Shown here: in pieces, positions 12,159 through 24,912 of the stretch
Numbering within the stretch: position 1 is the first letter of the stretch
Layout: the number at the start of each line of letters is the position of its first letter
From: a plasmid
Sequence record: CP063550.1
Length of the DNA: 64,000 nucleotides
Direction: 5' to 3' (one strand)
The notes under the pieces: generated by a model
What the model was told of the DNA's origin: nothing
Seen by the model: the letters and a program-made list of their open reading frames with translations, nothing else
The model's database searches: none
Made by a program: the position numbers and the translations under genes

Positions 12159-12429
12159 CTAATTGTTCAAACTCATCGTCTCCTAAAAAGTAGTGTTGAT
12201 TTTTCTTAAGTTTAGTAATTGGATTTTTTACAATCAATTTATACTTTAAAGCTTTGGTGGGGATTGTTTCGTAAATCCAAAAGATATTATAAGGATCTGA
12301 GGTAAGATAGAAATTTCTAAATTCAAAGTTTTTTTGTTTGTTTATAATTTTTTCCATGTATCGTGGATAGATACTAATAAGGATATTGTTAGTCATCGAG
12401 TGTCCATAATTCTCGTGTGGATTTTTCAT
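12154..12429 (-). CDS. Hypothetical protein; possibly the frameshifted C-terminal continuation of the upstream nuclease-like gene
   Basis: Overlaps the end of the previous ORF by 41 nt around an A5 run (ATGAAAAATCC). Confidence 0.3.
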   Translation of the reverse strand: MKNPHENYGHSMTNNILISIYPRYMEKIINKQKNFEFRNFYLTSDPYNIFWIYETIPTKALKYKLIVKNPITKLKKNQHYFLGDDEFEQLV

Positions 12430-13198
12430 TAATATAAGCTAAATAACTATTTTCAGTTAACTTAGCTGCCAGTTCCTTACTAGCTTCAGTCATTTCTATT
12501 AATGCTTTCCAATTGGGGATAGGGCTATCCAAACCAGAAATTTTTGTCGACTTATTTAAACGATTCCATTTTCTAATTGTTGTTCCTACTCTTATAGCTG
12601 AACTCGAACTGCTTTCTGTATTGTATTTATTTTTCACTTGTAAAAGAATTGGTGAGGTTCCTAAATAACAGAAATCAACAGCTCGATATACAGAGCCGGC
12701 GCACCAAATCCAACCTTCAGGTTCTAACACTTCGGCTAAATATTCCTCTAAAATACTTCCGTTCATGTTCTCAGCGCTCATATATAAAAAATGTCCACGC
12801 AAGTAGTCATTCAATACTTTTTGATCATCAATATTAGCATTTGCTGCTACTCTAGTAGTTAAAGCAGCATCTTTTTCGCCAAATGTTTTAAGAGGTTTTT
12901 TTAATGCTGGGTTATTCCTATCCCTGATGTATTTATTACACCATTTTGTTAAGTAAATTTTTGCCATAATTAATGGATTATCACTATCAGGTACTGATAT
13001 ACCAGTGAACAAACTTGGTCCATTGTTGAGTGCAAAATAAAAAAGTTCTTTTAAATTTTTATGATACTTACTATCTTCAACGTCATCGATAACTTCATCA
13101 AAAATAATGGATGCCGGTTCTGTGGTTAAACCTTCATTTAAGATTGATTCAAAAGTTCTATTTTTGTTAGGCATATACGTCACGTAGCTTGTTATCAA
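12389..13198 (-). CDS. Hypothetical PD-(D/E)xK-motif nuclease-like protein (restriction endonuclease-like candidate)
   Basis: 269 aa. AVDF...LLQVKNK fits D...(E/Q)xK. Divergent from hsdM. No family could be assigned without a search. Confidence 0.4.
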   Translation of the reverse strand: MITSYVTYMPNKNRTFESILNEGLTTEPASIIFDEVIDDVEDSKYHKNLKELFYFALNNGPSLFTGISVPDSDNPLIMAKIYLTKWCNKYIRDRNNPALKKPLKTFGEKDAALTTRVAANANIDDQKVLNDYLRGHFLYMSAENMNGSILEEYLAEVLEPEGWIWCAGSVYRAVDFCYLGTSPILLQVKNKYNTESSSSSAIRVGTTIRKWNRLNKSTKISGLDSPIPNWKALIEMTEASKELAAKLTENSYLAYINEKSTRELWTLDD

Positions 13199-13298
13199 GA
13201 ATAAGATTTTTTCTTTTTTTTTTGCTTTTTCTAAAAGGGAGTATGCTAAAATAAGAGGGTATATAGCAACTTTAAATAAGAGATAGGAGTGTATCTTT

Positions 13299-14894
13299 TT
13301 GGGTGCAGAATTAAATCAAAAATTATTTAGTGCGGCAGATAATCTCCGTAGTAAAATGGATGCGTCAGAATATAAAAATTATTTATTGGGACTGATTTTC
13401 TATAAATATTTATCCGACCGTTTGTTGGAACAAGTGGTTCTTTTAGCAGATGAATCCTTAGAGGAATATGACACAGTAAGCAAACAAACAATGTTGTATC
13501 GTGAATTACTTTCAGATGAAGAATCAAAAGAAGACCTGATTGCCACAATCGTTGATATTTTGGGGTATTCGATCTCACCAGAGTATCTTTTCAACGTCTT
13601 AGCGGATCAAGCAAAACAAGCAACGTTCCAATTGAACGATCTAAACAAAGCCTTTGTGCAATTGGCATCTACCTACAATCAATTTAATGGGTTATTTGAT
13701 GATGTGGATCTCCAATCAAAAAAACTAGGAACAGATGAGCAACAACGAAATGTGACGATTACCGAAGTTATCAAGAAATTGAATGACGTGGAAGTTTTAG
13801 GTCACGATGGGGATGTGATCGGGGATGCGTATGAATTTCTGATCAGTCAATTTGCTTCAGAAGCAGGGAAGAAAGCCGGAGAATTTTACACGCCTCATAT
13901 GGTTTCTGATATGATGGCACAAATCGTGACGTTGGATCAAAAAGAACGACGATTCTTTAGTGTCTTTGACCCAACCATGGGTTCAGGTTCCTTGATGTTA
14001 AATGTACGTAACTACTTAACTCATCCAGATAACGTTAAATATCATGGGCAAGAACTAAATACAACGACATACAATCTAGCAAAAATGAACTTGATTTTAC
14101 ATGGGGTAGATGCCGAAGAAATGAATCTCCGCAATGGGGATACGTTGAATAAGGACTGGCCAACAGATGAACCTTACACATTTGATGCAGTAGTGATGAA
14201 TCCACCTTATTCGGCTAATTGGTCAGCAGATACGACCTTCTTAGATGATTCTCGGTTTAATCGCTACGGGAAATTAGCGCCAAAATCCAAAGCAGATTTT
14301 GCGTTTCTTCTTCATGGTTTCTATCATTTGAAGGAAACAGGGACTATGGCTATCGTCTTGCCACACGGGGTTTTATTCCGTGGTGCTGCAGAAGGGGTCA
14401 TTCGTCAAAAATTATTAGAAGACGGCAGTATTTATGCTGTGATCGGTATGCCTGCGAACTTGTTCTTTGGTACATCGATTCCAACGACGGTGATTGTATT
14501 GAAGAAGAATCGTCAAACTCGAGATGTATTATTCATTGATGCTAGTCGTGAATTTGTTAAAGGGAAAAATCAGAATAAATTATCGGAAGAAAACATTCAA
14601 AAAATCCTCGAAACCTACGCTGAAAGAAAAGATGTCGAGAAATACGCTCATTTGGCAACCTTTGATGAAATCAAAGAAAATGACTATAACTTAAATATCC
14701 CACGCTATGTCGATACTTTCGAAGAAGAAGAACCAATTGATATGGTTCATGTCGGAAATGACATCAAGAAGATACGACAAGAACAGCAAGTGCTAGAAAA
14801 AGAACTTTTAGAAGCTATCTCTTCCCTGCAAACAACACCTGAAAATGAAGCGTGGTTACAAGGTGCGCTGGAGGTGTTCAAACATGAGCAATGA
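13299..14894 (+). CDS. hsdM: Type I restriction-modification system, N6-adenine methyltransferase subunit
   Basis: NPPY motif and HsdM N-terminal domain; TTG start. Confidence 0.9.
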   Translation: MGAELNQKLFSAADNLRSKMDASEYKNYLLGLIFYKYLSDRLLEQVVLLADESLEEYDTVSKQTMLYRELLSDEESKEDLIATIVDILGYSISPEYLFNVLADQAKQATFQLNDLNKAFVQLASTYNQFNGLFDDVDLQSKKLGTDEQQRNVTITEVIKKLNDVEVLGHDGDVIGDAYEFLISQFASEAGKKAGEFYTPHMVSDMMAQIVTLDQKERRFFSVFDPTMGSGSLMLNVRNYLTHPDNVKYHGQELNTTTYNLAKMNLILHGVDAEEMNLRNGDTLNKDWPTDEPYTFDAVVMNPPYSANWSADTTFLDDSRFNRYGKLAPKSKADFAFLLHGFYHLKETGTMAIVLPHGVLFRGAAEGVIRQKLLEDGSIYAVIGMPANLFFGTSIPTTVIVLKKNRQTRDVLFIDASREFVKGKNQNKLSEENIQKILETYAERKDVEKYAHLATFDEIKENDYNLNIPRYVDTFEEEEPIDMVHVGNDIKKIRQEQQVLEKELLEAISSLQTTPENEAWLQGALEVFKHEQ

Positions 14895-16101
14895 TACACG
14901 ACCAGAAATCCGGTTTCCTGGTTTTACGGAAGATTGGGAAGAGCGTAAGTTAGGAGATATGATGGATGTTACTTCTGTGAAGCGAATTCATCAATCAGAT
15001 TGGACTAACTCAGGTATTAGATTTTTACGTGCTCGTGATATTGTCTCAGCTGCAAAAAATGAGGAACCATCCGATTATCTTTACATTTCAGAAGAAAAAT
15101 ATAATGAATATTCGAAAAATTCAGGTAAAGTTTCTCAAGGAGACTTGCTTGTAACTGGTGTCGGATCAATAGGTGTCCCCTTATTAATCACTGATGATAA
15201 CCCAATTTACTTTAAGGATGGAAACATCATTTGGTTCAAGAATGAGCATAAAATTGACGGAAACTTCTTTTACTACTCGTTCATAAATAACAAAATTCAG
15301 AAGTATATCCGTGACGTTGCAGGCATTGGAACCGTCGGAACCTATACAATTGATAGTGGTAAAAAGACACCTATCTCACTTCCAACTTATGACGAACAGA
15401 TCAAGATCGGTTCATTTTTCAAACAACTTGATCACACCATCATGCTTCACCAGCACGAATTAGATTTGCTGAAGGAAACGAAAAAAGGATTCTTACAAAA
15501 AATGTTCCCTAAAAACGGAGCAAAAGTGCCAGAAGTTCGTTTTCCAGGATTTACGGGAGATTGGGAAGAGCGGAAGTTGGGGGAAGTGGTAGTTTTTTTG
15601 AATGGTAGAGCTTTTAAACAACAAGAATTACTTGATTCTGGAAAATATAGGGTTTTAAGAGTAGGTAATTTTAATACTAATGATAGATGGTATTATTCAA
15701 ACTTAGAATTAGAGGAAGACAAGTATGCTAATAAAGGAGATCTCTTATATTTATGGGCAACAAGCTTCGGTCCTGAAATGTGGAATGAAGAACGTGTAAT
15801 CTACCATTATCATATTTGGAAACTTAAATTTTTATCTAAGGAATTGGACAAACAGTATCTATATACTTGGCTATTGACTGATAAAGAGAAAATTAAAGAA
15901 TCAACTAACGGAACGACAATGGTACATGTGACTAAAGGTGGTATAGAACAAAGGACATTTCAGTTTCCACCGGATATAAATGAACAACAAAAAATTGGTG
16001 CCTTCTTCAAGCAGCTAGATGATACGATCGCTCTTCATCAACGTAAGTTAGATTTGCTGAAGGAAACGAAAAAAGGCTTCTTGCAAAAGATGTTTGTTTA
16101 G
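14884..16101 (+). CDS. hsdS: Type I R-M specificity subunit with two target-recognition domains
   Basis: The ATG overlaps the hsdM stop. The conserved spacer repeats (...FFKQLD...LDLLKETKKGFLQKMF) occur twice. Confidence 0.85.
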   Translation: MSNDTRPEIRFPGFTEDWEERKLGDMMDVTSVKRIHQSDWTNSGIRFLRARDIVSAAKNEEPSDYLYISEEKYNEYSKNSGKVSQGDLLVTGVGSIGVPLLITDDNPIYFKDGNIIWFKNEHKIDGNFFYYSFINNKIQKYIRDVAGIGTVGTYTIDSGKKTPISLPTYDEQIKIGSFFKQLDHTIMLHQHELDLLKETKKGFLQKMFPKNGAKVPEVRFPGFTGDWEERKLGEVVVFLNGRAFKQQELLDSGKYRVLRVGNFNTNDRWYYSNLELEEDKYANKGDLLYLWATSFGPEMWNEERVIYHYHIWKLKFLSKELDKQYLYTWLLTDKEKIKESTNGTTMVHVTKGGIEQRTFQFPPDINEQQKIGAFFKQLDDTIALHQRKLDLLKETKKGFLQKMFV

Positions 16102-16114
16102 GGAGGGAAGAAGA

Positions 16115-19100
16115 ATGAAAATTAGTCACCGTGAGGAAGCGGAAGTCGAAGAACAGTTGATTCGTGTCCTCGGGGAAGGACATAATCAGTGGACGTATCG
16201 TCCGGATCTAAAATCAGAAGAAGATCTTTGGAGCAATTTACGTCAAAAAATCATCTCAAATAATCAAGCAGAACTGAATGATTCTCCTTTGACCGATAAA
16301 GAGTTTGAAACGATCAAAACCGAATTATTGCTACGGACGAAAACCCCATTTGATGCTGCGAAATGGTTAAAAGGTGAAAATGGGATGGCTCGGATCACGA
16401 TTGAACGGGAAAATCCGCAATTGGGTTCTGTCTCACTTATCCTTTATTCCAATCAAGACATTGGTGGAGGAATCTCTACTTATGAAGTGGTCCATCAAAT
16501 TGCAAAACGTGGAAGTAACATAGAAGCGCGGGATCGACGTTTTGACGTCACCTTATTGATCAATGGCTTACCGATTATCCAAATCGAGCTAAAACAAGTA
16601 ACTGCAAAAGATGGTTTTTATCAGGCGTTTAATCAAATCAAAAAATATGCTGAAGAAGGCATGTTTCGGAACAATATCTTTTCGACCTTACAGTTGTTTG
16701 TGGTTTCCAATGAACAAACGACTCGGTATTTTGCAAATGCCTTACCGAAGGATTTGCATCCTAAGTTTTTATTTAGTTGGCGAACGAAAGATAATAAAAA
16801 GGTAGAAAACTTATATGAGTTTTGCAAACAAGTGCTAAATATCCCAGATGCCCATCGCTTGATTGCGGATTATACGATTGTCAGTGAAGATCAAGACAAT
16901 AAAACCCTCATGGTGTTACATCCTTATCAAGTGCATGCGATTCAAGCCTTGTTTATTGCCGCAAATAAACATCAATCAGGGTATGTGTGGCATGCGACTG
17001 GTTCAGGAAAGACGTTGACTAGTTTTGTATCTACTAAGCTTTTAGCACGAAAATCGGGGATCGATCGAACGATCATGTTAGTGGACCGCAAAGATTTAGA
17101 TAATCAGACCACCACAGAGTTTACGAAATTTGCTTCGGAGTTTAATACTGGGGTTTCTTCTGGTAATGCCAAAGCGAATAGCTTGATCGTGGGAACAGGA
17201 AGTGCCAAAGAGTTAAGTGAAACTCTGTTGGCAGATGCCAATGCGAATGTTGTGATCATTACAACCCGTCAAAAACTAGATGCGGCGTTGAAATATGCAA
17301 AGAAACAGGAAGAGAAAAAAGGAACCAATCGCTTCCAAAAATTAATGGGGCAACATATCGTGTTTGTAGTTGATGAGTGTCATCGAGCGTTAAGTGCTGA
17401 AAATATGGAAGAAATCAAAAAAATGTTTCCGAAATCCACTTGGTTTGGCTTTACAGGTACACCGATTTTCCCTGAGAATCGGAAACAAGCCAAAGGGCAA
17501 TTGGCACGTACGACCCATGATCAGTATGGAGAGGTCTTGCACACCTATACCATCAAGAATGCATTAGAAGATGGCTCGGTTTTAGGATTTCAAGTAGAGC
17601 ATGAAAACACCGTGGAGCCGACTTCATTAGAGAATAAAATCTATCGGAAATTAAAAGAAGTAGAAACATATGCAGAGTATTCACCGGAACAGATCAATCG
17701 TATGATCGATCAAATGGAGTCTGTCAAAAAAGAAAGTTATTTGGACCCTACTGTTTTTGAAGCAGAGGAACATATCCAAAAAGTCATTCATAAAATGTTC
17801 CGTCCAGACAATGCCTATACAAAATTTGATTTTCGAAATGGCCGTCCAACGAAGTCTGCGATCTTAACCACGAGTTCCATTGATATGGCCAAAAAGTATT
17901 ATCGGGCCATCAAAGAGATGACGAAAGAATCTGATTGGTTAATAAAAGAGTTTCCCAATCAGCCTATCCGTGAAGGACGAACGATGGAGGATCCTGATTT
18001 CCCACGAATCGCTATTACCTATTCATTAGAAGAAAATAGCCGAGATTCAAGTGCCCAACAAGAAGAAATGCAAAAAATTATTGAGGAATATAATCAGTAT
18101 TATGATACTGCCTGGTCACTAGCAGACATTGAGCGTTATAACGGAGACATCAATAATCGTTTGGCACGAAAAAGAGCGGAATTCAAACAATTTGGGAAAC
18201 AAATCGATTTAGTAATCGTAGTGGATCGTCTATTGACAGGTTTTGACGCCCCTACGATTCAAACCCTATTTGTGGATCGTAATCTAGAGTATGCAGGATT
18301 GATCCAAGCCTTTTCACGTACGAACCGTACGTATCCTGAAAAAACAAAAGGACTAATTGTTACTTTCCGAAAGCCAGCGACAATGGAGAAGAATGTCGAG
18401 GATGCGACAAAACTGTATTCAGAAGCTAAAGAAGAATCGGGTTTGATTTATCCAAGTTACCAAGAATCCAAAAAAAGATTCAAGCAAGCATATGGTAAGT
18501 TAAAAGAGGTTTCATCCATGGAATCCATTGATGAACATACGCCACTTGAAATCCGTATCGAGTACGTCAAAGCATTTCAAGAATTGAATCGTGCGTATGA
18601 ATCGTTAGTGACTTATGATGATTACAATGATGACATGGTGCAATCTTCAACTTTGAACAATCAAATTCAACTTTTGGAAGAACAAATTGGCGTGTACGAG
18701 ACCGTGAAGGGTTCATTGATGGAGGAAGAACCAGAAAAAGAGGGAGAAGATTTTTCAACGATCGAATTTTATAGTGAAAATACCACTAAGTTGTATGATA
18801 TTGATTCTACTTATATTGATCAATTACTAGGAACTTATGCTGCGAATAGTTCAGATGCACGAGAAGAAATTGAAAAAGCTTTGGCTAAATTGAATAAAAC
18901 AGAAGGAGTCAAAGAAGTTTACCGACAAATTTTAAATGCATTTGATGTGGGGACTTTAGATAGTAATGAAGATATCTTTGTCATTAAACGTCGCTATTTT
19001 ACACAAGCAAGTGATAATTTGATTCATGCCTTTTCCAATGAGTGGTTTGTTTCTGAGAAAGAATTACATGCTTCTAATCTGCAATATATGCCAGGTGAAG

Positions 19101-19264
19101 ATCCAATTCCTAATATGAAAGCAATTATCAACAGTAAGGATTACGAAGGATATAAAGCCAAACATCCAGAAGCGAAACCATTTAAATACCCACAAGAAAT
19201 GAAGCGAGCATGGCGTAAAATGTTAGATGATGAGTTGATTCCACTTGAAAATGAATTGAGGTAA
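16115..19264 (+). CDS. hsdR: Type I R-M restriction endonuclease/helicase subunit
   Basis: 1049 aa from the ATG at 16115, with GGGAGGG upstream. DECH helicase motif and a PD-(D/E)xK-type nuclease N-terminus (VHQIAKRGS...DVTLL). Confidence 0.9.
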   Translation: MKISHREEAEVEEQLIRVLGEGHNQWTYRPDLKSEEDLWSNLRQKIISNNQAELNDSPLTDKEFETIKTELLLRTKTPFDAAKWLKGENGMARITIERENPQLGSVSLILYSNQDIGGGISTYEVVHQIAKRGSNIEARDRRFDVTLLINGLPIIQIELKQVTAKDGFYQAFNQIKKYAEEGMFRNNIFSTLQLFVVSNEQTTRYFANALPKDLHPKFLFSWRTKDNKKVENLYEFCKQVLNIPDAHRLIADYTIVSEDQDNKTLMVLHPYQVHAIQALFIAANKHQSGYVWHATGSGKTLTSFVSTKLLARKSGIDRTIMLVDRKDLDNQTTTEFTKFASEFNTGVSSGNAKANSLIVGTGSAKELSETLLADANANVVIITTRQKLDAALKYAKKQEEKKGTNRFQKLMGQHIVFVVDECHRALSAENMEEIKKMFPKSTWFGFTGTPIFPENRKQAKGQLARTTHDQYGEVLHTYTIKNALEDGSVLGFQVEHENTVEPTSLENKIYRKLKEVETYAEYSPEQINRMIDQMESVKKESYLDPTVFEAEEHIQKVIHKMFRPDNAYTKFDFRNGRPTKSAILTTSSIDMAKKYYRAIKEMTKESDWLIKEFPNQPIREGRTMEDPDFPRIAITYSLEENSRDSSAQQEEMQKIIEEYNQYYDTAWSLADIERYNGDINNRLARKRAEFKQFGKQIDLVIVVDRLLTGFDAPTIQTLFVDRNLEYAGLIQAFSRTNRTYPEKTKGLIVTFRKPATMEKNVEDATKLYSEAKEESGLIYPSYQESKKRFKQAYGKLKEVSSMESIDEHTPLEIRIEYVKAFQELNRAYESLVTYDDYNDDMVQSSTLNNQIQLLEEQIGVYETVKGSLMEEEPEKEGEDFSTIEFYSENTTKLYDIDSTYIDQLLGTYAANSSDAREEIEKALAKLNKTEGVKEVYRQILNAFDVGTLDSNEDIFVIKRRYFTQASDNLIHAFSNEWFVSEKELHASNLQYMPGEDPIPNMKAIINSKDYEGYKAKHPEAKPFKYPQEMKRAWRKMLDDELIPLENELR

Positions 19265-19415
19265 ACGAGAAGAGTTAAGAAAATTGTACGATTCAAAGAT
19301 AGTAGTAAAGTGGAAGTGTAGAAAATAGGGATAGATGTCTTTTTACTTGTTCACATTTTATAACGGAGTATTTAAGAAAGCTATTGAATAATGATTCTTC
19401 CATCTTTTTCATTCA

Positions 19416-20222
19416 TTTACCGGTTCTGTTGCAGAGTTTTAAATAAAGAATAAAATCCCTTACGGTATCTATGATTTAAGCTGGGATTCCCAATAATACC
19501 TTGATTTCAGTACAGACCGAAAACCCGAAGAGAGTGCCTTCTTTTCGGGTTTTCTTATATAATCCTCGAATGGCTTCCATGCCTTTAATCGTGGTAGAGG
19601 CAGTGCGTAAACTTCGATAGAATTTATTGCGTCTCTTTACTGGACGATGGTCTTGTTCAATCAAATTATTCAGGTATTTAATGGTACGATGTTCTGTCCC
19701 TTGATAAAAGCCGTATTCTTTTAGTTTCTTAAAGGCACTTGTAATAGAGGGGGCTTTATCTGTGACTACAACCTTCGGTTCATCAAACTGCTTCACTAAC
19801 CGCTTAAGAAAAACATAGGCTGCTTGTGTGTCCCGTTTTTTACGTAACCAAATATCCAAGGTTAAACCATCTGCATCGATGGCTCGATACAAATAATGCC
19901 ATTTTCCTTTAATTTTGATGTACGTTTCATCCATTTTCCATGAATAAAAGGATTTTTTATTTTTCTTTTTCCAAATTTGATAGAGTAGTTTGCCATATTC
20001 TTGCACCCAACGATAAATCGTCGTATGAGAAACGTTAATGCCACGATCATATAAGATTTCTTGAACTTCACGATAGCTAAGGTTATAACGAAGATAGTAG
20101 CCCACGGCTACAATAATCACATCCTGCTGAAATTGCTTTCCTTTAAAATGATTCATCGTCATTCCTCCTGCTATCTTTTTCTATTATTCTACCTTATTTG
20201 ATAGTAGATTTAAAACTTTGCA
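19416..20222 (-). mobile_element. IS6-family insertion sequence, IS1216-like, complete
   Basis: Terminal IRs GGTTCTGTTGCAGAGTTTTAAA (19416) and GGTTCTGTTGCAAAGTTTTAAA (reverse complement at 20222). About 807 bp. Confidence 0.85.
19476..20162 (-). CDS. tnp: IS6-family (IS1216-type) transposase
   Basis: 228-aa intact DDE transposase. Confidence 0.9.
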   Translation of the reverse strand: MTMNHFKGKQFQQDVIIVAVGYYLRYNLSYREVQEILYDRGINVSHTTIYRWVQEYGKLLYQIWKKKNKKSFYSWKMDETYIKIKGKWHYLYRAIDADGLTLDIWLRKKRDTQAAYVFLKRLVKQFDEPKVVVTDKAPSITSAFKKLKEYGFYQGTEHRTIKYLNNLIEQDHRPVKRRNKFYRSLRTASTTIKGMEAIRGLYKKTRKEGTLFGFSVCTEIKVLLGIPA

Positions 20223-20290
20223 ACAGAACCATAATTCGAATTTTTATGTTATATACTATAATATAAAATCAATATATGATATAATTGGGT

Positions 20291-20647
20291 ATGGAAAAAA
20301 TATCTTTTGAAACATTTAAAAGACCTAATGGTCATGATGAATTTTTAGAATGGTTGGAAACATTACCAAAAAAAGATAGTGCGAAGCTTTTACGTACAAT
20401 AGAAGAAACAGAAAAGAATGGGATGCTAGTAGCTCAACGGTTGAAATGGGTGAAAAAATTAGACACTAATTTGTACGAATTAAGAAGTAAGGTAGGATCA
20501 AACATCCAAAGAGCTATCTATTTCCATGTGGTCAATGGAAGGTATGTCATTACCCATGGATTTACTAAAAAAACGGAGAAAACACCAATAAGTGAACTTA
20601 AACATGCAAAAGAACTTAGAGAGGAGTGGTTCACAAATGATGATTAA
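20291..20647 (+). CDS. Type II toxin, RelE/ParE superfamily (phage Gp49-like, HigB-type)
   Basis: Gp49-like motifs (LYELRSK...RAIYFHV...ITHGFTKKT). Followed by an XRE antitoxin gene that overlaps its stop. Confidence 0.7.
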   Translation: MEKISFETFKRPNGHDEFLEWLETLPKKDSAKLLRTIEETEKNGMLVAQRLKWVKKLDTNLYELRSKVGSNIQRAIYFHVVNGRYVITHGFTKKTEKTPISELKHAKELREEWFTNDD

Positions 20648-20903
20648 AAAATTGATTGAAGAAAAGCAAAAAGACAAAGATTTTGCAGAAGCATATGACC
20701 GTGAAGGAAGAAAACTCGAAACTGCGGTTGCTCTTTATCATGCACGGGAGGAAGCAGGCCTAACTCAAGCGGAGCTTGCACAAAAAGCACATACAACTCA
20801 ATCTACTATTGCTCGAATTGAGAGAGGGGATAACGTATCTTTCGATAAACTTGATGATATCGCTAGGGCATTAGGCAAAAAGCTGGTAGTAGAATTTGCT
20901 TAA
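20637..20903 (+). CDS. XRE-family HTH antitoxin (HigA-like)
   Basis: HTH LTQAELAQKAHTTQSTIARIERG. The ATG overlaps the toxin stop (AATGATGATTAA). Confidence 0.7.
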   Translation: MMIKKLIEEKQKDKDFAEAYDREGRKLETAVALYHAREEAGLTQAELAQKAHTTQSTIARIERGDNVSFDKLDDIARALGKKLVVEFA

Positions 20904-21061
20904 AAGCGAGTTGAAAATATACCTGTAATAGGCTCCTAACTAATCAATTAGTTTAGTGGGCCTTTTTGTACTAAATAGATAAAAGTTGTCCTATAGTGTA
21001 AAAGTCAATAAATTTTATACAAAAATTACTTTAAAGAGACATAAAGAGAAAGGTACAATAA

Positions 21062-22063
21062 ATGAAAACCATAAATCTAATAAAAGTATTTATAGCATCA
21101 CCAGGTGATATAGCAGCAAAGAGGAATGAAGTAGAAGAAACCATATATAGATGGAATATAGAAAATACAGATAATACAAAAGTAATTTTGATGCCAATTC
21201 GATGGGAAACGAATGCGATTCCTACTTATATAAATAATAGCTCTGGGCAAAGTGTTATTAATAAACAAATTGTAGAAAATAGTGATATATTATTAGCGAT
21301 TTTTGGCCATAAGTTGGGTTCTCCAGTTGATAATTATAGATCGGGAACTATAGCAGAAATTGATTACTTTTATAAAAATAGCAAAGGCGAGGTAGGGGTT
21401 TTTTTCTTAGATGAACCAGTTCCACAAGTTTTGGCTGAAGAGTATATAGAAGTTAAGAAGTACAGGGACTCTTTAGAAGATAAGGGTTTTTATGGAACAT
21501 ATAGCAAAGACAATATCAGAAGGTTTCTCACAAAAAAAGTGAATTATTTAATTGAGAAAGCACAAAATAATTTAGAATCAAAACGCTTTGATTTAGATTC
21601 TATTTCTTACAAGACACCTTCAGTAATTAACAAAAAAGTTACCGGAACTGATAAAGATTTTGATGACAACTTAGATATTTTTGATCCAATAGAATTTGAC
21701 AATGATGAAAGATTGCTGCTAATATATGCGTTTATGGATGAAAATTCTATCTTTTCAACTGATAATTCAACTTATAGAAAAGTAGTTCAATGGGAAAGTG
21801 ATAACAATTTAAGGAGTTACTTGAGTGATAGAGTATTTGATGTACTAGAAAAATTAAGTAAATCGGGAATTTTAAAGGAAGAATACGATTCTTCTTTTGA
21901 TGAGTATCCATCACGCTATATTTTGATTTCAGAGGACTATAAGAAATTTAAAAGGTATTTTTTAAAAAATGAAAAAAAGATATCTGTTATTATGGAGAAA
22001 TACAAAGCTCCAATACAGGCTGATCCATTTTCCAATTTGGATGAATCAGATTTACCGTTTTAA
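21062..22063 (+). CDS. Orphan protein with an N-terminal nucleoside-2-deoxyribosyltransferase-like/DUF4062-like domain (TIR-like Rossmannoid fold) and an acidic C-terminal region of unknown function; candidate defence or abortive-infection effector
   Basis: VFIASPGD...ILMPIRWE...DILLAIFGHKLGSP...SGTIAEIDYF resembles the NDT/DUF4062 D/SGTxxExG active-site Glu motif. The gene is very AT-rich compared with its flanks. This is a domain-level call, not a family assignment. Confidence 0.45.
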   Translation: MKTINLIKVFIASPGDIAAKRNEVEETIYRWNIENTDNTKVILMPIRWETNAIPTYINNSSGQSVINKQIVENSDILLAIFGHKLGSPVDNYRSGTIAEIDYFYKNSKGEVGVFFLDEPVPQVLAEEYIEVKKYRDSLEDKGFYGTYSKDNIRRFLTKKVNYLIEKAQNNLESKRFDLDSISYKTPSVINKKVTGTDKDFDDNLDIFDPIEFDNDERLLLIYAFMDENSIFSTDNSTYRKVVQWESDNNLRSYLSDRVFDVLEKLSKSGILKEEYDSSFDEYPSRYILISEDYKKFKRYFLKNEKKISVIMEKYKAPIQADPFSNLDESDLPF

Positions 22064-22432: not shown

Positions 22433-23047
22433 TCATACAATTAGTTGGTCGATTTCTTTTTTTATTCGGTAAATTGTTTGCCTAGTCACATTGTAGTCTG
22501 TTGCAATCTTTGAGATAGCAACCCCATTCTCAAGATCCTGAACGATACTCCTATAGACAAGGCGACGTTGAGGATCTTTGGTGTCTGCACTGTATAACTT
22601 AGGACGACCTTTATAGACGCCGTTTGCTTTAGCGATTTTAATTCCTTGTGCCTGGCGTCGTTTCGATTCAGTACGTTCTTGTTCAGCAATCATGGCTGAG
22701 ATTTAAATGATTAAGTCTTTGATGAATTTATCTAGGAGAGGATTTCCAATTGCTTCAGCCATGATCGGTAAACTGGTGATAATAAGTCGCACATTCTTCT
22801 TCTTTAGATAATTCACTGAATCGATAATCTCGTCATAATTGCGTCCAAGTCGATCAATGGCTTCTACAATAAAAATATCTTGCTCTCTGACAAAATCTAA
22901 AGCTTCCTGGAAAATCGGCCGATGACTAATCGTCGCTCCAGATTGTTTTTCGATAAAAATTTTTTCAGCGCCAAACTTTTTCATTTCTTCAATTTGACGT
23001 TGTTCATTTTGATCGATGGATGAAACTCTAATATAAGCAATTTTCAA
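22433..23047 (-). pseudogene. Serine recombinase (resolvase), frameshifted between the catalytic domain and the C-terminal HTH
   Basis: The N-terminal ORF 22703-23047 (YIRVSSIDQ, catalytic Ser) and the C-terminal HTH ORF 22433-22693 lie in different frames 10 nt apart. Confidence 0.75.
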
Positions 23048-23229: not shown

Positions 23230-23532
23230 TTGAAAAGGAAAGATAAATATTATAGATTATTACTTTTGACAGCTGAAGCAGGATGGATGGATTTTCCAGA
23301 AGTTGTAAAAGAAGTTCAAGAGATAGGTGCAACTATTTCTGATAGCCGCTCCTCTCCTATGAACTATCAGGATGCCCATGGAATTAAAATAATTGATCAA
23401 GAGAGAAATGTCAGAAAATACACAACAATAAATGAGTGTGTAATTAATGAAAATCTTTGTAGGGCACCGATAACGAAACACATTAAGAATAGAAGCAAAG
23501 CAAAAGACGGAAGAACTTTTACTACCTTCTAA
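23230..23532 (+). CDS. Hypothetical protein
   Basis: ORF only; TTG start; no recognisable motif. Confidence 0.25.
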   Translation: MKRKDKYYRLLLLTAEAGWMDFPEVVKEVQEIGATISDSRSSPMNYQDAHGIKIIDQERNVRKYTTINECVINENLCRAPITKHIKNRSKAKDGRTFTTF

Positions 23533-23628
23533 GTTTTTTTCATATTTGTTTGCTATACTTAGATCTAAGGAATTAGACTTTCGCTGCCCATTATTTAAGT
23601 TTGAGGTAGCGTCTTGCGAGGGATCAAT

Positions 23629-23851
23629 AATGGAAGAAGAAAAAATATTTGAAAAACGCTGGGAATTGGCTTCAGTTGAACAAAGAGCAAGGTACCATAA
23701 TCTAATGTCCTCTTACCGTAATATTGATTGGACTTACAAAGAAAAGAAGTACTTGCTTTGGTTATGTCAGTTAGATGTAAATACCTTTGAAACATTTGAA
23801 GTGATTCTAGATAAGATTAAAAACAGCAATGAAAAAAGAGCTGATCTATAA
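23629..23851 (+). CDS. Hypothetical small protein (start taken at MEEEKIF)
   Basis: ORF only. Confidence 0.25.
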
Positions 23852-24095: not shown

Positions 24096-24912
24096 AAACG
24101 GTTCTGTTGCAAAGTTTTCCAAAAAATCTATTTTAGTGTAAAATTGAGAAAAAAGACAGAGAGGACAGAGTAATGAATCATTTTAAAGGCAAACAATTCA
24201 AAAAAGACGTCATTATTGTCGCTGTTGGTTACTACCTGCGTTACAATCTAAGCTATCGTGAAGTTCAGGAATTGTTATATGATCGTGGAATAAATGTTTG
24301 TCATACTACGATTTATCGTTGGGTATAAGAGTACAGCAAAGTCCTCTATTATCTTTGGAAGAAGAAAAATAGACAATCCTTCTATTCATGGAAAATGGAC
24401 GAAACCTATATCAAAATTAAGGGACGTTGGCATTATCTTTATCGTGCAATTGATGCGGACGGCTTAACCTTAGATATCTGGTTACGAAAGAAACGGGATA
24501 CGCAAGCAGCCTATGCTTTCTTAAAACGACTCCATAAACAGTTTGGTGAGCCGAAAGCAATTGTGACCGATAAAGCACCTTCTCTTGGCTCCGCCTTTAG
24601 AAAGTTACAGAGTGTGGGTTTATATACTAAGACAGAGCACCGAACTGTGAAGTATCTTAACAATTTAATAGAACAAGACCATCGACCTATTAAACGACGA
24701 AATAAATTTTATCAAAGTCTCCGTACAGCCTCTTCCACGATTAAGGGCATGGAGACCATTCGAGGAATATATAAAAAGAACCGAAGAAATGGAACGCTCT
24801 TCGGCTTTTCGGTGTCTACTGAAATCAAGGTATTAATGGGAATAACAGCCTAAGATATTTGGAGTTCAGAGAGGGCGCGTTTGATTTTCAAACTTCGCAA
24901 CAGAACCGAGAA
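24096..24912 (+). mobile_element. IS6-family IS1216-like element, second copy, inverted relative to 19416-20222
   Basis: IRs GGTTCTGTTGCAAAGTTTT (24096) and GGTTCTGTTGCGAAGTTTG (reverse complement at 24912). Confidence 0.8.
24170..24853 (+). pseudogene. IS6-family transposase with an in-frame TAA at 24326-24328 (RWV*EY where the intact copy has RWVQEY)
   Basis: The translation matches the 19476-20162 transposase except for the stop at codon 53. Confidence 0.8.

Follow-up and report, generated by a model that had tools for sequence, protein, structure and literature searches.

A plasmid-borne DUF4062 protein of Enterococcus with a C-terminal winged-helix module and an SSB-like tail, a likely single-protein abortive-infection system

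We analysed a 64,000-nucleotide stretch of plasmid DNA (sequence record CP063550.1; one strand, 5′ to 3′), here called the window, with a focus on a single gene that likely encodes an abortive-infection protein of the DUF4062 kind. A first reading of this DNA, made by a model from the letters and a list of open reading frames (ORFs), had proposed the gene as an undescribed single-gene defence or abortive-infection effector (hereafter the original prediction). The ORF list confirmed a 333-aa frame at 21062–22063 on the plus strand, exactly where it had been placed, and the RefSeq annotation of an identical plasmid names its product WP_002344895.1, “DUF4062 domain-containing protein”. The gene and its parts are given below, where invariance refers to an alignment of 20 full-length homologues of WP_002344895.1 (38–97% identity), pLDDT is the predicted local distance difference test score, SSB stands for single-stranded DNA-binding protein, with SSB-Ct as its C-terminal tip, and Eva01 is a published DUF4062 protein of Staphylococcus aureus.

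21046–21053, plus strand: Shine-Dalgarno-like GAGAAAGG, 8 nt 5′ of the ATG, read from the sequence
21062–22063, plus strand: whole gene, coding for a NIR/DUF4062 effector, a disordered linker, a winged-helix module and an acidic PF tail (ORF list, RefSeq, 20 homologues)
21062–21565, plus strand: residues 1–168, DUF4062 (NIR, TIR-like) domain with a trailing helix (149–167), predicted NADase effector
21089–21091, plus strand: Phe10 codon, counterpart of Eva01 F11
21203–21208, plus strand: Trp48-Glu49 codons (RWE), counterpart of the DUF4062 “Q/W/E” motif, invariant
21356–21358, plus strand: Glu99 codon (SGTIAE), predicted catalytic glutamate, invariant and aligned with the Eva01 SYTEME motif
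21566–21673, plus strand: residues 169–204, disordered linker from effector to sensor, variable in length and sequence among the homologues (pLDDT 30–34)
21674–21997, plus strand: residues 205–312, acidic winged-helix domain (alpha-beta-alpha-alpha-beta-beta and two helices), predicted sensor/assembly module
21998–22060, plus strand: residues 313–333, flexible acidic tail ending ...ADPFSNLDESDLPF-COOH, with invariant or near-invariant L331, P332 and F333 (low pLDDT)
22043–22060, plus strand: SSB-Ct-like tip ESDLPF within the acidic tail

The identity of the N-terminal domain was established by profile search. Pfam DUF4062 (PF13271) matched residues 8–101 with 28.3 bits against a gathering score of 24.7 (E 2e-6), spanning model positions 1–80 of 82, and a precomputed PF13271 match was carried by 17 of the 19 aligned full-length homologues. 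The domain showed the flavodoxin-like fold of TIR proteins and nucleoside 2-deoxyribosyltransferases (NDT), and is a DUF4062 domain of the NDT/TIR-like clan. Thus, the clan assignment of the original prediction withstood the Pfam check that it had proposed for itself, and all four sequence blocks that it had quoted (KVFIASPGD, VILMPIRWE, SDILLAIFGHKLGSP and SGTIAEIDYF) were recovered in the translation. The element said to carry the catalytic glutamate was likewise present, with the predicted E99 lying in SGTIAE. Residues F10, W48-E49 and E99 were invariant over the 20 homologues, down to 38% identity, and aligned with F11, W51-E52 and E87 of Eva01; E99 also corresponded in position to the catalytic glutamates found in KpSwz, Vulcan, VstA and PsAvs2. 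Elsewhere, the same N-terminal subfamily was found joined to NB-ARC STAND, TIR, OST-HTH and other C-termini. By analogy with the characterised proteins, the E99 site of the window protein would be expected to hydrolyse NAD+.

The known DUF4062 proteins provide the frame for this expectation. Osinski et al. described DUF4062 as a TIR-like NADase, and their Swarozyc protein of Klebsiella pneumoniae (KpSwz) combines DUF4062 with a helical stalk and an auxiliary region (AUX) whose core is of the helix-turn-helix (HTH)/winged-helix type; it is activated by binding of the dodecameric phage portal and depletes NAD+ in an abortive infection, with E97 being essential (bioRxiv 10.64898/2026.05.01.722283). 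Ibarra-Chavez et al. reported Evangelion, whose representative Eva01 is encoded by a single gene of the S. aureus plasmid pMW2 (our locus L002, 3863–4837) and consists of a DUF4062 core and an essential AUX; the residues F11, E87 and W162 are indispensable, the NAD+ level falls when cells are infected, phages escape through mutations in UvsX/Sak recombinases, the protein binds DNA with single-stranded (ssDNA) tails, and a census of the plasmid database PLSDB counted 202 Staphylococcus and 159 Enterococcus plasmids (bioRxiv 10.64898/2026.06.25.731849). Le Mouellic et al. renamed the domain NIR and showed that it serves as effector in an Avs2 protein, in Vulcan (NIR with HEAT repeats) and in Vesta (an NIR protein with an alkaline phosphatase), the essential Glu being E98 in Vulcan and E108 in PsAvs2 (bioRxiv 10.64898/2026.09.04.749371). 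Hydrolysis of NAD+ into ADP-ribose plus nicotinamide has been shown for KpSwz, TEP1 and PsAvs2 only. NAD+ cleavage, which the original prediction had named as a possible output, has been demonstrated in the three independent 2026 preprints for DUF4062 proteins of other systems, which deplete NAD+ and confer defence of the abortive type, and may by analogy apply here. The defence or abortive-infection effector that it had proposed is largely right in kind (a DUF4062 NADase domain, catalytic motifs, defence islands), whereas the word “undescribed” is outdated, since Swarozyc, Evangelion and NIR/Vulcan/Vesta have been published and the Evangelion census almost certainly counted this very gene.

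Comparison with each system placed the window protein close to two of them in organisation. Like Swarozyc, which occurs in defence islands, it is a single protein with an N-terminal DUF4062 domain carrying its catalytic Glu near residue 97–99, followed by a helical segment and a C-terminal HTH/winged-helix core, so that the Swarozyc layout of DUF4062 and then AUX is present; in Swarozyc, the AUX is required for defence, which proceeds by abortive infection through NAD+ depletion. No PDB sequence match was found, and the published KpSwz residue numbering, used in place of a KpSwz sequence, gave at best 3 of 7 agreements over ~200 module hits. The wing tip differs, being W238/Y239 in KpSwz and an acidic or YGNP-type loop here, and no SSB-like tail is reported for KpSwz, whose trigger is the portal. 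The likeness to Eva01 lies in a plasmid-borne single gene of similar length (324 versus 333 aa), the common F, W-E and S-x-T-x-x-E motifs, a position near toxin-antitoxin (TA) and recombinase genes on resistance plasmids, and a C-terminal AUX, essential in Eva01. In contrast, the AUX of Eva01 is helical and unrelated, and it ends ...NKHLYE, without a PF tail.

Membership of the Eva01 lineage was rejected: the best BLASTP match had an E of 0.088 over an off-register segment, hhalign gave a probability of ~1% (E 0.06) to the core only with no homology between the AUX regions, and the two tblastn sets obtained on PLSDB had no genus in common. Eva01 as query returned 202 Staphylococcus plasmids, the exact number in the preprint, and 0 Enterococcus plasmids, and the window protein returned 148 Enterococcus plasmids, with no Staphylococcus among the genera listed. 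Because of this split, the Enterococcus share of the Evangelion census (159 plasmids) almost certainly represents the window gene, a lineage distinct from Eva01. Evangelion in the broad sense, meaning one gene on a mobile element whose product joins a DUF4062 core to a non-catalytic auxiliary region, does describe the window gene, which has no conserved partner. With the NIR systems PsAvs2, Vulcan and Vesta and with the PADLOC candidate PDC-S60, the window protein shares the effector domain and its essential Glu. We rejected Vulcan, Vesta and NIR-Avs, as HEAT repeats, a STAND NTPase (Pfam) and an adjoining alkaline phosphatase were all absent, and also PDC-S60, of whose model positions 2–156 were matched by residues 4–156, covering 17% of the 906-position model.

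The C-terminal part had been described as ~200 acidic residues that match nothing recognisable. The acidity was confirmed: the winged-helix domain has a net charge of −7 and a pI of 4.7 (the median net charge of the family is −4), which favours protein binding over DNA binding. Its invariant residues are F207, F212, D213, E216, W244, L254, K264, Y293 and K297, and the alignment closes with an invariant or near-invariant ...(D/E)LPF. No Pfam or NCBIfam family matched the C-terminal half. The claim that it matches nothing did not hold: when 1.84 billion cluster representatives were searched exhaustively with a profile, the winged-helix and tail module was recovered in 194 clusters, mostly of TIR proteins, and always at the C-terminus. 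A DUF4062-type N-terminus was found on ~31 of 168 carriers, and in 8 of 10 other carriers sampled the partner was a TIR_2 domain of the SpbK type (PADLOC spbK, E down to 3e-52). Short proteins with the winged helix and tail were encoded directly 3′ of a TIR_2 gene of 126–136 aa in three cases out of three. The module is mostly fused to an SpbK-like TIR domain or else encoded immediately 3′ of a small TIR gene, and is therefore a unit shared by NADase effectors, with a predicted sensor/regulatory role. It is self-contained and paired with NADase-type effectors either by fusion or in trans; effectors have been swapped on a common predicted sensor, and in the lineage of the window gene DUF4062 has replaced TIR. 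What is new here is this undescribed C-terminal winged-helix module with its SSB-like tail, common to many TIR proteins.

SpbK, encoded by the Bacillus subtilis element ICEBs1, is itself an abortive-infection NADase of a mobile element that is activated by clustering on the dodecameric phage portal (PMC12847820). Most carriers of the winged-helix-tail module have an SpbK-like TIR NADase in place of DUF4062. SpbK differs from the window protein in that its TIR domain is C-terminal, its N-terminal sensor is another one and it lacks the winged-helix-tail module, while the window protein has DUF4062 and not a canonical TIR domain. The TIR_2/winged-helix-tail gene pairs lie in Desulfobacter hydrogenophilus (L015, 4643–5657), on a metagenome contig (L017, 4612–5645) and in Paracoccus sp. 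(L018, 4608–5630); their second gene codes for a linker followed by the winged-helix module with its acidic FPF or LPF tail, and nothing else. These two-gene operons are uncatalogued candidate defence systems.

The tail of the window protein ends ...DESDLPF-COOH, and the family ending can be written (D/E)-hydrophobic-Pro-Phe-COOH. Among 150 module representatives, 85 (57%) ended in PF and 105 in F. Within the 85 PF-ending proteins, F at −1 and P at −2 were present in 100%, a hydrophobic residue at −3 in 96% (L in 66%), and D or E at −4 in 71% and at −5/−6 in ~40%, with basic residues at no more than 5% from −6 to −1. AlphaFold2 left the tail unplaced (pLDDT ~50–59). A flexible segment in which acidic residues precede a terminal hydrophobic-Pro-Phe is also characteristic of the SSB-Ct (DDDIPF or DDDLPF), which in Escherichia coli, as DDDIPF, is the docking site for many genome-maintenance proteins (PMC5872125). 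Plasmid-encoded SSBs of E. faecium and E. faecalis end ...NPFGGQSIDISDDDLPF and ...DPFSKDVSPIDISDDDLPF, respectively; their common pattern, (N/D)PF...DISDDDLPF, compares with ADPFSNLDESDLPF in the window protein, and an upstream DPF/NPF motif is present in both. Unlike SSB, the window protein has no OB fold, no ssDNA-binding domain and a short linker, and a docking role of its tail is putative.

Endings of this type are rare, being found in 1 of the 521 open segments of the window, and in Streptococcus mutans three proteins have one, two of which are SSBs (PMC5143411). The third, SMU.394, is the sole non-SSB protein of that genome ending LPF (PMC5143411). None of 16 DUF4062 relatives whose C-terminal domains are of other kinds (STAND, TIR, OST-HTH and others) had the tail. 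The named Gram-negative members of the module family (Paracoccus, Desulfobacter) end FPF. No SSB gene was found in the window. On E. faecium megaplasmids of the same replicon family, an AbiEii/AbiGii toxin gene lies directly ahead of the plasmid-borne ssb (L003, 1–786; L004, 1–798).

The gene is AT-rich, as the original prediction had noted, with a GC content of 29.3% (22.5% at third codon positions) compared to 38.5% for hsdR and 35.0% for the window. The spacing between the stop codon of the upstream xre gene (20903) and the ATG was 158 bp, in agreement with the ~160 bp given before. The promoter-like AT tract claimed for the gene did not exceed chance (11 promoter-like sites against 13.1 expected from shuffled sequence); the Shine-Dalgarno-like sequence is present, and the claim of an own promoter is correct only in part. 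The hairpin and T-run 3′ of xre was weak and not significant (z −0.77), and the Rfam search matched no family in the window. The two features adjoining the gene are as follows.

20291–20903, plus strand: HigB-like (Gp49/RelE-ParE) toxin and XRE antitoxin pair (Pfam, RefSeq), linked to close copies of the gene and not a conserved partner
22433–23047, minus strand: serine recombinase/resolvase pseudogene, with Pfam Resolvase and HTH_7 on two ORFs, convergent with the gene

The upstream pair was confirmed as a Gp49/HigB-like toxin (PF05973, E 2e-19) and an XRE antitoxin (HTH_3, E 5e-15). The toxin (20285–20647) also matched the C-terminal part of PADLOC NsnC (Menshen; E 5e-9), which probably reflects the shared Gp49/RelE-like fold. 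The downstream resolvase exists as predicted, although here it is a pseudogene: a CAA-to-TAA change at Gln115 creates a stop codon at 22703–22705 in a sequence that is 95% identical at the nucleotide level to an intact 204-aa copy on a pTEF2-type plasmid. Bracketing of the unit by IS1216 was borne out on the left only, where the copy at 19380–20260 is intact; the right copy (24100–24853) is of the IS6 family, 76.5% identical to the left one, inverted and split in its transposase ORF, and the cassette unit is therefore not a simple IS1216 composite transposon. Two small ORFs at 23230–23851 (100 and 101 aa) had no Pfam match and correspond to shorter RefSeq hypotheticals (WP_008271463.1, WP_002311006.1); annotation of an E. 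lactis plasmid (L021) likewise places them to the right of the cassette. Directly left of the cassette, a defence island at 12389–19264 holds a SinI-family restriction endonuclease (minus strand) and a complete type I restriction-modification (R-M) system (hsdM, hsdS, hsdR).

The window belongs to a megaplasmid of E. faecium, and many plasmids of that species, 150–300 kb in size, matched the 6-kb surroundings of the gene at 100% identity. Besides the Enterococcus plasmids, tblastn of the window protein on PLSDB returned 7 Rhodococcus and 5 Synechococcus plasmids, and the carriers include E. faecium megaplasmids of clinical isolates (blood, rectal swab) and pTEF2-type E. faecalis plasmids. No copy of the gene was found in phage genomes. 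Copies at least 96% identical had an Abi gene, a Qat system or insertion sequence (IS) elements as neighbours, and the higB-xre-gene-resolvase block was seen on differing backbones, namely those of an E. lactis megaplasmid, a pTEF2-type plasmid of E. faecalis and, with higB no longer annotated, an E. casseliflavus plasmid. Among the four more distant homologues (on L006, L007, L008 and L009), with identities of 72, 47, 39 or 37%, no HigBA pair lay beside the gene; the L009 homologue is flanked by AbiJ, Fic, SEFIR/TIR and Fst genes, that of L008 adjoins HEPN-ApeA, and that of L006 adjoins a reverse transcriptase (RT) gene. On L007 (1–9547), a 37%-identical homologue lies between a type I hsdR (hsdMSR) and the gene for an 838-aa DEAD/ResIII/Helicase_C_2 helicase, so that type I R-M is a neighbour as in the window. 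Large genes of the AEP-TOTE primase-polymerase type occur near two members (L006, 10287–12809; L018, 6920–9280), one with RVT_1 and the other with PriCT_2/VapE-like domains, which hints at a satellite or integrative-element context. Since HigBA is absent beside the 72–37% identical homologues, the gene is a stand-alone unit of defence islands. The TA pair hitch-hikes on a 2.8-kb higB-xre-gene-resolvase cassette, in which the gene moves on Enterococcus plasmids and settles next to further defence genes. This finding agrees with one of the two options left by the original prediction, that the gene acts alone: the genes of distant relatives sit singly in defence islands, with no conserved partner.

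The other option, coupling to the HigBA-like pair, would make the gene the effector of a three-gene unit, a toxin controlled by the TA pair or regulated by XRE. Conservation of the block on plasmids of E. faecium and E. lactis and on pTEF2-type ones of E. faecalis, the common orientation across the 158-bp gap, and the fact that XRE regulators control some defence genes, with the XRE protein here matching the PADLOC capH and control-protein models, are what this reading would lead one to expect. All linked copies are at least 96% identical, however, so that the linkage reflects recent common descent, and adjacency is lost at the four lower identities. In E. casseliflavus (L020), the gene is intact on a plasmid where higB is no longer annotated and an IS1216 copy adjoins, which appears to have removed it; the hairpin and T-run after xre, though not significant, also points away from a common unit, and Eva01, Swarozyc and Vulcan each work as single genes. 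We therefore rejected HigBA as a functional partner, for want of deep conservation, and consider the three-gene unit very improbable. Only slightly less remote is the idea that LPF is a ClpXP degron that holds a toxic NADase at low levels, with phage interference in proteolysis or synthesis altering its abundance. Degradation of SsbA and SsbB by ClpXP in S. mutans UA159 requires their C-terminal LPF, which also suffices for it, and green fluorescent protein (GFP) ending in LPF is degraded (PMC5143411); Enterococcus, too, belongs to the Lactobacillales. Nevertheless, recognition of LPF is strain-dependent within S. mutans and absent in E. coli, in work that also tested purified ClpXP on GFP-LPF, and single LPF substitutions abolished it (PMC5143411), while the module family covers Bacteroidota, Desulfobacterota and Alphaproteobacteria with F, I, V or M at −3. 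A degron is thus highly unlikely.

Two further readings of the tail deserve more weight. In one, which we regard as a tentative possibility, the tail would serve internally as a latch or in assembly: hydrophobic-Pro-Phe would insert into a conserved pocket, either in the winged-helix module of the same or an adjacent molecule or in the effector, causing autoinhibition and/or side-by-side polymerisation of sensor domains upon the trigger, and the resemblance to SSB would be convergent. Conserved surface motifs (W244-E245, LS.(N/R)Y and the TSYGNP wing) could form such a pocket, the tail lies near the domain in many members, and the split two-gene versions keep the tail, which would then have to target, in trans, the TIR subunit or itself. 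A parallel exists in Swarozyc, where the C-terminus of the AUX tucks under the N-terminal part of its neighbour in a side-by-side assembly (bioRxiv 10.64898/2026.05.01.722283), although homology of the module to that AUX could not be shown. AlphaFold2 did not dock the tail with confidence, and the acidic run before PF finds no explanation in a latch that is purely hydrophobic and closes onto a domain that is itself acidic. In the second reading, possible yet doubtful, the tail is an SSB-Ct decoy and phage or host proteins that dock on SSB (recombinases, helicases, primosome, exonuclease) bind ...DESDLPF; the protein would either be a sentinel drawn to replication and recombination sites, or oligomeric phage SSB-binding proteins would cluster the tails and switch on the NADase. 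The profile of the 85 PF-ending tails fits the SSB-Ct pattern DDD[IL]PF (PMC5872125), and the close match to the DISDDDLPF ending of Enterococcus plasmid SSBs, the rarity of such endings, the predicted flexibility and the finding that the tail tracks the winged-helix module and not DUF4062 (0 of 16 relatives with other C-termini) are all consistent with a decoy. Escape mutations of Eva01 in phage recombinases and its binding of ssDNA-tailed DNA indicate that DUF4062 systems can monitor replication and recombination. Against this, the tail of many members extends just ~5–20 residues past the last helix, compared with the long linker of SSB, and PF ends just 57% of the representatives. Proteobacterial SSBs typically end IPF. 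The FPF endings of the Gram-negative members show no obvious co-variation with the host SSB and lend no support to strict mimicry, and we found no precedent in the literature for an SSB-like tail on a TIR, DUF4062 or other defence protein. Extended to the whole family, the decoy would be a widespread, previously unrecognised sensor of ~190 clusters of TIR and DUF4062 NADases, either fused or encoded in two-gene operons, fired when phage replication or recombination proteins whose usual docking site is the host SSB bind and cluster it; we consider this wider version unlikely. If true, it would represent guard-by-mimicry, in which immunity by NAD+ depletion is tied to the hijack of the SSB interactome.

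Taken together, our analysis points to the gene as probably encoding an abortive-infection system that consists of one protein, is of the DUF4062 kind (NIR, TIR-like NADase) and has a C-terminal winged-helix-tail module as its predicted sensor. According to this model, the N-terminal domain (residues 1–168, catalytic Glu99) would be the NAD+-degrading effector, tied by the disordered linker to the C-terminal sensor/regulatory module. In uninfected cells, the winged-helix module and its (D/E)-hydrophobic-Pro-Phe tail would keep the enzyme off in an autoinhibited resting state. Upon infection, the module would recognise a phage-derived component, most likely an oligomeric protein, and this recognition would cluster the NADase domains into an active assembly, as portals do with Swarozyc and SpbK, so that NAD+ depletion would lead to the abortive-infection outcome. 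Several points weigh against this model. The PF13271 match is just modestly above threshold, and the similarity to Eva01 is weak (hhalign E 0.06, BLASTP not significant). Members of the NDT/TIR clan can use other substrates, such as nucleotides and dNMPs, which makes NAD+ less than certain, and winged-helix domains often bind DNA; the one in the window protein is acidic, yet Eva01 binds ssDNA-tailed substrates. Moreover, the Evangelion study describes a lineage, Eva02, without protection in S. aureus or E. coli, which bears on the window protein if Eva02 is that protein (bioRxiv 10.64898/2026.06.25.731849).

The window gene thus represents a distinct DUF4062/NIR lineage with an undescribed predicted sensor, its kind of effector being already known. 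It was just in 2026 that DUF4062/NIR NADases came to be recognised as defence effectors, with a spread that extends from bacteria to human TEP1, and with that effector known, the finding would gain weight if the tail proved to be an SSB mimic. The predicted sensor module common to TIR and DUF4062 proteins offers a testable handle on the trigger and a route to ~190 further candidate systems, which current catalogues know just by their TIR domain. With ~150 sequenced Enterococcus plasmids carrying the gene, it is of relevance to phage therapy against enterococci.

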